DNA of 64,000 nucleotides from NCBI RefSeq assembly GCF_056712565.1, contig NZ_CM160072.1. The stretch is one strand, 5' to 3'. The position numbers are program-made. Below are positions 51,001-54,000 of this stretch, in pieces (within the stretch, counting starts at the first letter, position 1; each line of letters opens with the position of its first letter).

Positions 51001-54000
51001 CCCCTGGGCCACCATTTCCCGCCATATCCGGCTGGCATTATAATTACCACTTTCTCGTTGCTCTTTTAACCACTCCCTCCATGGGTCCAGAAGCCCTCGC
51101 TTTGGAGGCCGGGTTGACATTTCAGGGAATGTTCCTGAACGCACCCAGCGACTGACTGTCACTCGCGACAGGCCTGTAATACGGGATATTTCCCTGAAAC
51201 TACATCCCTTGTTATGCAGGGCCATAACCTCTGTCCAATGCTGATGCCGTTTTTTGCGGGTTTGCTGTTTAAGGCGTTCCGGACGACGGAGCGATGCTAC
51301 AGGCACAGATATTTCTGGCTCAGGTGATTTATTCAGTGATAACTCTCTGACAACAAGACGTATCAGAGGCATATGTCTGTACATCATTCGTTCAGGCTCA
51401 TCACCAATACTTTTTAGCAGGTGCCATCGATCGGCCACCTGTCTGGCCTGAGGTGCACCTTCACGTGCTGCTGTCGCATAGACTCCACTGCGATCACGCG
51501 AGACAACCTGTATTTCCGGATATTTTCTGAACCAGGTCGCCAGCGTACGCTGATCACGGCCGGGAAGCAGGACGAGGGGACGGTGAGTATCAAGATTGAC
51601 TATTAACATACCGCAGCAGTGGCCCCGATGCCACGCCCACTCATCAATACCGACATGAGGCGCGCCTGACTGTTTCGTCTCCGGGGTATTGATAACCCTG
51701 CGAAGAAGAGTATCAGCACTGCAACGGAGACCCGCTGCCGTTGCAGCCCGTTTTCCAGCCTCACCTCCAGCTATTAATCCCAGTTGACGTTGTAAATTTT
51801 GTAACGCCTGTGAAGACTGCTGGTGTGAACCGGCGAAGGGAGCAAGCGACTCGGCAAAAATTTTACGTTAACAAGCCGGGTTACGGCAGTACCAGTGGCG
51901 GACGGAAAATACAAGCCATAGCGTCTGCCCTGAGCAGGGTAGATGCTGTATCCGGCGCCGACGACAACTATGAACAGAGTCGCTACGCTTAAAGCATTCA
52001 GGACATTGTGCTGTTTTGCGTTTTCCGTGGAGATGGAGGGTTATACCGTCAGAGCTAATAATTTGTCGACTGCATCGCCATCCGCAAGGTAACTGTAGAA
52101 GTGTCTTAAGAGAGTGCATTGCGTTGCCCATAACTTAAAACAGCTTAGATCCTTGTTCGCCAGAAAGTTTCATCCATTTTCTTCCACCCAGGTTGCGGAA
52201 GAACCACTTTTCATCCGTCGTTGACAGATGTGAAGTATGCGGGAGAAAAAGTGAATATCTAACTGTAATAACTCAGACCGGTACGAGTACCCGGGACGTC
52301 TACAATCATTCAGGGCAAAGTGCTAAAATTTCTCTATCCCGGGATGCCCCTACCAACGCAGCACTCCCGGAGATATCATTACAGCTCTACAACTGATTTC
52401 CGCGACTGAACCGCTCAGTTCCTATCCTTCCAGTTGCCTTCCTGCAGCCCCCCCTCCCTGCTGTATACCCCGGTACCACAACGCGGGCAGCACTTTTCTC
52501 CTTCATAATCTTCGTCACACATCACACAAAACCACTTTCTCACCTTCACCGTATAATCCGGAACCGTCATACCCTGCAGATGCAAACGACGGGCCTCTTT
52601 CTCTGCCGGGTCAAGCCAGGTGCATCGCAGCAGGATTTTCTCAGCGACAGTCATCTGGTCATGTTCAAACCACGGTGGTTGTCCGTCATTGCCCCGCTGA
52701 AGTGTTAACGGGCATCCACAGGACACACAGCACAAAACGTCCTGGCGGTTGTGCTTCGCTGCTTCTTTCGCCGTAACAAAATGGCCTTTGCTGTCATTCG
52801 CCATATAACAGTTCAGAATTCGCATATTTCCTCCTGAGTTGTCCGGGGAATACTGAATCCTCCGGTCTGGCAGTGTGTGCAGTACCGCTCCCCATAATAA
52901 TCGTGGTGACATTGTCTGCAGTGCCAGCTGGCTTTACGCACCACGGGTAAGGCATCCGGTACGAATTGCTGCAGACGTTTAATCAACTGTATTTCTCTGC
53001 GCTCCGGCCTGACATAAGGGCACTGTTGACCGTGCTCTGTCAGCCTGTCGTCAGTGTGTTCAAACCAGGGAAGTTCAGTGTCGTATTGCGGATGGTATCT
53101 GAGTGCACTGCCACACAAGTGGCAGGTGTAGTGAGCATAAGGTGCGGCCTGTACAGTACGGGCGCCCGTCAGACGTCCGTTGCTATCAAGAGCGAGAAAG
53201 GATTTTGCGTACATAGTATATGTTCCTTACCGTCAGACGACACGCAGGCAACAGCCGTCCCGGTACGGGCAGCGTGGTCAGGTGTGAATGGCGGTTTCAG
53301 TTCAGTCTCATAAGGGAAAATCAGTGTGGTGGCCATGAACACGTCATCACACTGAAGTCAGATAACTCGTCTGTCTGGCTCAGCCACGACTGCAGCCAAA
53401 GTTGCGCTCACCGGTGCAGTGAGCTTTGGTATGCTCCTTCGCCAGATAGTCAGCACGTTCCAGCACTTGCTGAAAGCCGGTGTCATCATTACGCGCCAGC
53501 CACACCGCCGGCCAGGCCGGAAAATGCACCAGCGTGGCATGGCATCCGGCATCCACCCCCAGGGCACTGCACCAGGCCTGTTCAATCATTCCGGCCAGTG
53601 ATCCCGGAGCGCGGTAATCACCGGCACGACACCAGGTATCCCGGTTGACCAGCAGCATCAGATGATAGTGTTTTTTACCTTTGCACTCCCCAAACTCCCG
53701 GGCCCAGACGTAATGCAGAGTGGTGGGATGCACGCGTTTACCTTCCCGATGCTTACGTTTCTGGTAAGCGTCGATTCGGGCTTTCAGGGCATTGATGAAG
53801 CGGGATATCACAGCTGCGTCCGTTGCTGCCGGTACATCCGGGAAACGCAGGTCAACCCGCAATGCCGTCAGGCGGGGATGAACATTCAGTGCGTGCCGCA
53901 CTGTCTCACGAATACGTTGCTGCCAGAAGGGGTTGTATTTGTAGGTCATGGTTAAATCTCCGTATGGTTCATACGGAATAGCCACGTCGTAAAAAATGCG

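Follow-up and report, generated by a model that had tools for sequence, protein, structure and literature searches.

Most Escherichia coli genomes contain CP4-like genomic islands with cargo for virulence, metabolism and defence, and the replication and movement of these islands after excision are poorly understood. Small zinc proteins built of single or duplicated units are known from elements of the P2/P4 type, namely Ogr of phage P2 and the duplicated Delta of satellite P4, both of which are zinc-finger activators of late genes. Small proteins, sometimes tandem paralogues, are also encoded beside the HUH-type nickase of other integrative elements, such as HelP of ICEBs1 and Orf22/Orf23 of Tn916. 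Here, we describe two overlapping genes, termed B and C, in a stretch of 64,000 nucleotides (nt) of contig NZ_CM160072.1 (NCBI RefSeq assembly GCF_056712565.1), the whole of which is referred to as the window. Both genes encode putative zinc-ribbon proteins and are located on the minus strand, as is the adjacent gene A, a member of the YagK/YfjJ family. A comparable core of IntY, AlpA, an inovirus-Gp2-like protein and RadC, combined with defence cargo, has been described for islands at the tmRNA site of Pseudomonas (bioRxiv 10.1101/2024.08.29.610337).

Our preferred interpretation, to which we assign a probability of about 40%, is that B and C bind nucleic acids and serve, probably as a pair, as accessory or regulatory subunits of a module that controls excision and replication of the island; this function is deduced from context only. 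The interpretation is based on the absence of a catalytic domain from B and C in Pfam searches, on two putative zinc modules, on weak matches to the N-terminal domain of CoiA (CoiA_N), and on strict synteny with YagK and AlpA. The two genes are not novel as objects, since their family is already catalogued in Pfam and RefSeq and is very common in E. coli. New are the co-inherited module of HUH nickase, AlpA and zinc pair, the recognition of YagK as HUH-like by its fold, and a conserved element upstream of gene B.

Two related genes for putative zinc-binding proteins

Gene B corresponds exactly to the RefSeq entry WP_000271042.1 ('putative zinc ribbon protein') and gene C to WP_001221617.1 ('zinc-ribbon domain-containing protein'). 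Both proteins show the same order of domains, an N-terminal DUF7828 (PF25165) followed by a C-terminal Zn_ribbon_11 (PF11682, formerly DUF3279), with Pfam E-values of 9.6e-31 and 1.2e-9 for B and 7.9e-31 and 5.7e-18 for C. They are full members of these families and show no difference from them. Aligned with each other by BLASTP, B and C are 31% identical over 125 amino acids (aa; E 5e-16). A first-pass annotation of the window had proposed a duplicated zinc-ribbon protein of unknown function and had named chance spacing of cysteines as one possible flaw; alignment and shared domain layout show that the similarity is real and not due to chance. The architecture described there, with an N-terminal CxxC, the motif PWFEH and a C-terminal CxxC...CxxC, is found in both proteins, but the TGG that was to end it occurs in B only, C having TGV and the family consensus at this position being tGiYS. 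Likewise, PWFEH is present in B and C but was called invariant too readily, as its W and E are only near-conserved in the family.

The start of gene C was placed at the ATG at 52825, which is the RefSeq start and yields the beginning MRxLxCY found in all orthologues, including those of other genera. A mechanical open reading frame (ORF) of 165 aa starting at 52912 was discarded; its start is not conserved and differs from RefSeq. The stop codon of B (52815-52813) lies within C, and the resulting overlap of 13 nt makes translational coupling of the two genes plausible, as had been suggested. A Shine-Dalgarno sequence AGGAGG precedes the ATG of C by 4 nt (AAAT). The ribosome-binding site of B is weaker and consists of AAGGA only, about 9 nt upstream of the ATG, so the earlier description of both sites as strong holds for C and is generous for B. 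Between genera, dN/dS ratios of 0.15-0.18 were obtained for B (against Hafnia and Superficieibacter orthologues) and of 0.21-0.24 for C (against other genera), with synonymous sites close to saturation in these comparisons. B and C are thus real coding genes under purifying selection.

When 34 diverse full-length relatives are aligned, C-x2-C, F-x-H, W-x-C-x2-C and C-x2-C are invariant, and a further, nearly invariant Cys follows F-x-H. The models DUF7828 and Zn_ribbon_11 were matched by 45 and 43 of 45 aligned relatives, respectively. All putative metal ligands, arranged as C-x2-C...F-x-H...C and W-x-C-x2-C...C-x2-C, are kept in B and C, and the simplest reading of this pattern is two putative metal sites, one of CCHC type and one C4 zinc ribbon. 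The AlphaFold2 model of C is confident (pLDDT 88.7); in it, a small N-domain, rich in beta structure and with short helices, is joined by a connecting helix to a ribbon of three strands. No solved structure related to the family by sequence or fold was found, NCBIfam gave no significant match for B or C, and no paper was found on DUF7828, Zn_ribbon_11, DUF3279 or their Pfam accessions. Guessed locus tags of strain CFT073 (c2410/c2411), tried as a lead into the literature, led to the unrelated ROD21/serU island. Relatives in UniProt and AFDB are often misnamed 'DNA-directed RNA polymerase, beta subunit/140 kD subunit', and further ones go by 'Ybl85' or 'competence protein'. Such annotation artefacts could mislead automated pipelines.

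Within E. coli the pair is widespread: B and C DNA was detected in 3,811 of 5,426 complete genomes (~70%), with a median of two and up to seven places per genome, and both ORFs are intact in the window and in about 3,000 genomes. The family as a whole is narrow, comprising only 166 cluster representatives (50% identity) at E <= 1e-3 from 1.84 billion proteins, many of them fragments. All named relatives belong to the Enterobacterales (Salmonella, Klebsiella, Citrobacter, Serratia, Hafnia, Yokenella, Pectobacterium, Budvicia and Moellerella). None of 50,697 phage genomes harbours a homologue, IMG/VR contains only four loci with the family, all of them island-like, and 32 of 72,556 plasmids carry it, mostly large Klebsiella plasmids. 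A scan of public contigs yielded only seven loci because the peptide pattern used was narrow.

B-like and C-like subfamilies with the 13-nt overlap are present in Hafnia, Superficieibacter, Yokenella and on Klebsiella plasmids, which indicates that the duplication is old. Tandem pairs with overlaps of 1-13 nt recur in several genera, and single-copy loci also occur. A third form, P0193 (locus L018, 6001-6717; found on four contigs), is a member of 238 aa with two fused DUF7828 N-domains and one zinc ribbon. Its gene directly follows that of a normal 129-aa member with an overlap of 1 nt and lies beside cargo consisting of Kiwa and a type I restriction-modification (R-M) system.

Gene neighbourhood and the element upstream of gene B

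For the analysis of gene order, 16 loci and the window were annotated with our own profile hidden Markov models (HMMs) of recurring families and with precomputed Pfam data where present; statements on synteny refer to 12 loci of diverse origin and the window, and there to those genes of the DUF7828/Zn_ribbon_11 family (zinc genes) that have enough flanking sequence. Every such zinc gene has a YagK-like gene, a divergent Rep-like gene or a degenerate YagK gene on its own strand at a distance of no more than about 1.5 kb. The divergent Rep-like protein, found in L018, has HxH and Y..K motifs of its own, and both motifs are lost in the degenerate YagK paralogue (UCP030791, PF27752). Only one of these loci lacks an AlpA-family gene. 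The order YagK-AlpA-ZnB-ZnC-YagK'-DUF2913, with the same 13-nt overlap as in the window, is found in Hafnia, Superficieibacter, Yokenella and on Klebsiella plasmids. Other arrangements are YagK-AlpA-Zn-cargo-integrase (L012), AlpA-YagK-Zn (L015 and L016) and AlpA-X200-Zn-YagK-X200-Zn-AlpA (L017), in which X200 denotes a protein of about 200 aa described below. The divergent side carries genes for a YeeP-like GTPase, a WYL/DeoR regulator, antirestriction and DUF932 proteins, which represent the usual backbone of the CP4-44 type. Beyond the zinc genes the cargo differs by locus: it is metabolic in the window and in strain C8, ABC-3C-like in L012, Kiwa and type I R-M in L018, and includes an OLD-type ATPase in L007. 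Since this content varies while the core of YagK and AlpA stays, the zinc genes are the last core genes before the cargo and not cargo themselves. The first-pass view that B and C lie beside a YagK/YfjJ gene of the kind typical of CP4-like integrative elements is supported.

The island is located downstream of cobUST, beside the pks/colibactin island. The segment 52300-64000 is 100% identical to several E. coli genomes of the ST73 type; matches include Nissle 1917, CFT073 and ABU 83972 for 52300-54100 and ABU 83972 and M-17 for 54000-64000. The K-12 pseudogenes yeeH, yoeG and yoeH of CP4-44 were considered as remnants of A, B and C and are not.

Gene A matches YagK_YfjJ_C with E 2e-47, in line with its first assignment to this family; the end at 53985 given for it before reflects only a mechanical GTG start. 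Its product contains an HUH metal motif, a YxxK-type catalytic Tyr motif and a Rep-like alpha/beta fold. By Pfam, by the invariant HUH and YxxK motifs and by fold, YagK is HUH Rep-like. The AlpA protein of the window scores E 8e-43 with our AlpA model, and its sequence matches in the PDB are an AlpA-family protein (8c3t) and TorI (1z4h). In the window, its gene is separated from A, B and C by an hha remnant and an IS110 insertion. Downstream of alpA lies the gene for X200, which has no Pfam or NCBIfam match. It resembles proteins of 177 and 176 aa in L017 (BLASTP E 1e-16 to 1e-19), and homologues are encoded directly upstream of zinc genes in L017 (5458-5991 and 7537-8067) and L025 (527-1357), so that X200 may be a further component of the module.

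A stretch of 72 nt just upstream of gene B is 81-89% identical to its counterparts in Hafnia, Superficieibacter and Yokenella, compared with 54-68% for the flanking coding DNA. Its core, CTGCCC-N(2-5)-GGGA(C/A)G, is located about 40 nt before the ATG of B in the window and is retained even where loci have diverged far more, at about 36-41 nt ahead of the start codon. Among the 16 loci and the window there is one core copy per locus, always ahead of the first (B-like) zinc gene. The variable inner spacer points to a hairpin-type or one-sided site rather than to a rigid dimer operator. The element may be an operator, a promoter or a hairpin to which a protein binds.

Other identities were tried and rejected. 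A structured RNA is not supported: the element had no Rfam match at E <= 1, folded no better than shuffled sequences (z-scores -0.07 to -1.2) and gave an RNAalifold covariation term of about 0. The element is no conserved small ORF, since indels between genera break the frame. A scan for sigma-70 promoters found none; a sigma-54 promoter (GG-N8-TTGC) would suit the copy in E. coli, but L006, L023 and L031 lack the -12 GC. The hexamer GGGACG is also that of the AlpA binding element of P. aeruginosa (PMC9371919, PMC7969949). This match was treated as a coincidence because the island AlpA is an unrelated protein of the TorI/excisionase type, and an element of the P. aeruginosa type was rejected in view of this unrelated family and of the missing second half-site GGTA. 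A combination of fold similarity and cognate element as in the antiterminators of the Q type and the P. aeruginosa AlpA type (21Q, lambda Q, Pae AlpA) was not found.

Several further observations concern the surroundings. Degenerate YagK paralogues without the HUH and Tyr motifs, annotated in RefSeq as 'inovirus-type Gp2 protein', adjoin zinc genes in several genera (L007, 8426-9061; L032, 9493-10059; L020, 87-569) and are followed by a DUF2913 gene in L007 and L032. The X200 gene is broken by an IS21-type element in CFT073 and intact in the window. Divergent from gene A is an ORF of 67 aa whose product has an N-terminal CxxC...CxxC ribbon and a C-terminal hydrophobic helix; it is intact in the window and in L004 (WP_001297900.1), is annotated as frameshifted in CFT073, and has weak PHROG matches to families of unknown function. 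The cargo next to gene C encodes a PfkB kinase, a glutamine amidotransferase, a DMT transporter and a phosphotriesterase-related protein. Further away, two genes overlap, one of them IbrB-like (ParB-type) and the other PAPS-reductase-like (IbrA-type). All positions are collected in Table 1.

Table 1. Positions of genes and other features in the window
Feature	Position	Strand	Length	Basis or annotation
Gene B, DUF7828 + Zn_ribbon_11, B-like subfamily (start MYAKSF...)	52813-53214	(-)	133 aa	ORF, Pfam, RefSeq
Gene C, DUF7828 + Zn_ribbon_11, C-like subfamily (start MRxLxCY...)	52415-52825	(-)	136 aa	ORF, Pfam
Conserved non-coding element just upstream of B	53226-53297	(-)	72 nt	Cross-genus alignment
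Core of the element	53255-53272
Gene A, YagK/YfjJ family, HUH Rep-like putative nickase	53380-53949	(-)	189 aa	RefSeq 'inovirus Gp2 family protein', WP_000221519.1
AlpA-family (PF05930-type) excision regulator, island backbone	56921-57127	(+)		RefSeq 'helix-turn-helix transcriptional regulator'
X200, downstream of alpA	57206-57823	(+)	~200 aa	BLASTP, gene maps
ORF divergent from gene A	54146-54349	(+)	67 aa
ISL3 transposase pseudogene, just downstream of C	50512-52131
Truncated hha/ymoA remnant	54589-54765
ISEc20 (IS110 family), in the gap between gene A and alpA	55529-56725
IS100	58849-60650
Cargo next to C	~44000-50100
Overlapping IbrB-like and IbrA-type genes	38956-40808	(-)

Possible roles of the pair

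In the preferred interpretation, B and C would be small zinc-dependent proteins that bind nucleic acids, each composed of a CCHC module resembling CoiA_N, followed by a helix and a C4 ribbon, and would be part of the conserved module that controls the life cycle of CP4-like islands rather than of the cargo. Translational coupling would co-express the two proteins, which probably act as a pair: as a hetero-oligomer where both genes occur and as a homo-oligomer where there is a single gene. The occurrence of single, coupled tandem and fused-N-domain forms (P0193) suggests that the N-domains work in pairs. The pair would work with the neighbouring HUH Rep-like nickase of the YagK/YfjJ family and with the excision regulator AlpA. 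Its most likely role would be to recognise a specific DNA or hairpin site and thereby to guide or control either the nicking or replication of the island after excision or the expression of the module itself. We infer that B and C bind zinc and nucleic acids, that they pair with each other, and that they are functionally linked to YagK or AlpA. Isolates of Nissle after passage through the gut provide a weak external hint: they gained copies of an integrase gene and of an 'inovirus Gp2 family' gene and also lost a 15.5-kb segment containing a phosphotriesterase (bioRxiv 10.1101/364505); the segment deleted in Nissle 1917 appears to be the cargo beside gene C.

A more far-reaching proposal, which we consider unlikely, is that YagK, AlpA, the ZnB/ZnC pair and the 72-nt element form a module, not described before, that initiates the rolling-circle replication or the mobilisation of CP4-like islands in Enterobacterales, with the zinc pair giving the nickase its recognition of a site or hairpin, or its licensing, after excision triggered by AlpA. 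As one co-inherited module, the zinc pair, the HUH-type YagK, AlpA and the cis element are a candidate for the missing control of replication and mobilisation of these islands. If B and C were only local regulators, the result would amount to the routine annotation of a domain of unknown function.

Several points weigh against the preferred interpretation. As it stands, the functional case for B and C rests on gene neighbourhood. The similarity to CoiA_N is below significance for any single sequence (E 0.35 for C; 10 of 45 members at E <= 0.1, the best at 1.3e-3), and both proteins are near neutral in charge with a pI of about 7, and not strongly basic. In K-12, yagK and yfjJ have no zinc partner; the pairing is therefore specific to a sub-group of these modules, and YagK proteins do not generally need such a partner. 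The upstream element may be no more than a promoter or leader that serves the B-C operon, and need not involve B, C or YagK. Finally, the island copy in the window is decayed, with the transposase pseudogene and the other insertions and remnants listed in Table 1, and many E. coli copies of the pair are truncated or frameshifted, so that B and C may be dispensable in situ. That they are relics in decay which no longer have a function in this strain, as the IS elements (ISL3 pseudogene, IS110 and IS100), the damaged copies and the lack of any integrase found near the A-B-C locus of the window might suggest, is nevertheless extremely improbable in view of the many intact ORFs, dN/dS values well under 1 and the retention of all putative metal ligands.

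Among the other explanations, a role of B and C as stand-alone transcription factors of the Ogr/Delta kind or as autoregulators, acting without YagK through the upstream element or other sites on island or helper genes, is possible though doubtful. Small zinc proteins inside a P4-like ('CP4') element that occur in single, tandem and fused-duplicate forms recall the relation of Ogr to Delta, the zinc genes adjoin the regulator AlpA, and the conserved element stands at a fixed distance ahead of gene B. The ligand pattern is, however, unlike that of Ogr/Delta, and Ogr_Delta (PF04606) was not matched by B, C or 45 relatives even at E <= 10. In addition, a core spacer of 2-5 nt is awkward for a rigid dimeric operator, and the element lacks a recognisable sigma-70-like promoter.

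The first-pass annotation had listed regulators as well as defence or anti-defence factors among the candidate functions, and of these a regulatory role is still plausible. Defence, anti-defence or interference with a helper, for instance by binding a protein or nucleic acid of phage or host, would fit the position of the zinc genes at the border of a variable cargo region, which holds defence systems in L018, L012 and L007, and the presence of AbpAB in the slot after yfjJ of K-12. The suggestion was not borne out: in PADLOC-DB 2.0, B has no match and the best match of C is PDC-S64 (E 0.067), which covers 30 residues within the zinc ribbon, PHROG has none for either protein, and the 50,697 phage genomes are devoid of homologues, IMG/VR adding only the four island-like loci mentioned above. 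Moreover, the zinc genes co-vary with the YagK/AlpA core and not with particular cargo, which is purely metabolic in the window and in strain C8, and we regard this explanation as quite unlikely. Still less probable are CoiA-like mediators of recombination or establishment, whose N-domain would have the same task as that of CoiA in natural transformation: they would deal with single-stranded DNA, either incoming or from rolling-circle replication, and bring in recombination or replication proteins of the host upon arrival of the island in a new cell. Weak CoiA_N and DUF7830 matches do recur across members, one UniProt member is automatically named 'competence protein', and the islands carry genes of the conjugative 'leading region' type (antirestriction, DUF932 and the RadC-like YeeS), which suggests entry as single-stranded DNA. 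Against this stand the individually non-significant CoiA_N matches and the absence of the CoiA nuclease domain from B and C; no usable paper was found on the role of the CoiA N-domain.

Comparison with known systems

The N-terminal domain of CoiA (CoiA_N, PF25164) and DUF7830 show a spacing similar to that of B and C, with CxxC, about 15-20 residues, a strand with aromatic-x-His, and a Cys. CoiA differs in having a PD-(D/E)XK nuclease and C-terminal domains, both absent from B and C, which carry a C4 zinc ribbon instead. Ogr and Delta show neither sequence nor Pfam similarity to B and C and have a different ligand pattern, and CP4-like islands are without the late genes that these proteins activate. 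HelP and Orf22/Orf23 offer an analogy only, as they are not homologous to B and C and have no zinc sites.

The K-12 proteins YagK of CP4-6 and YfjJ of CP4-57 share with gene A both the YagK_YfjJ_C family and the type of island, with alpA present in CP4-57; unlike the window, these loci have no DUF7828 gene. For the tmRNA-site islands of Pseudomonas no zinc-ribbon partner has been reported, and DUF7828 was seen only in Enterobacterales. These islands follow the same backbone logic as the island described here, with an integrase, AlpA, a Gp2/YagK-like protein, a RadC-like protein and variable, often defensive cargo.

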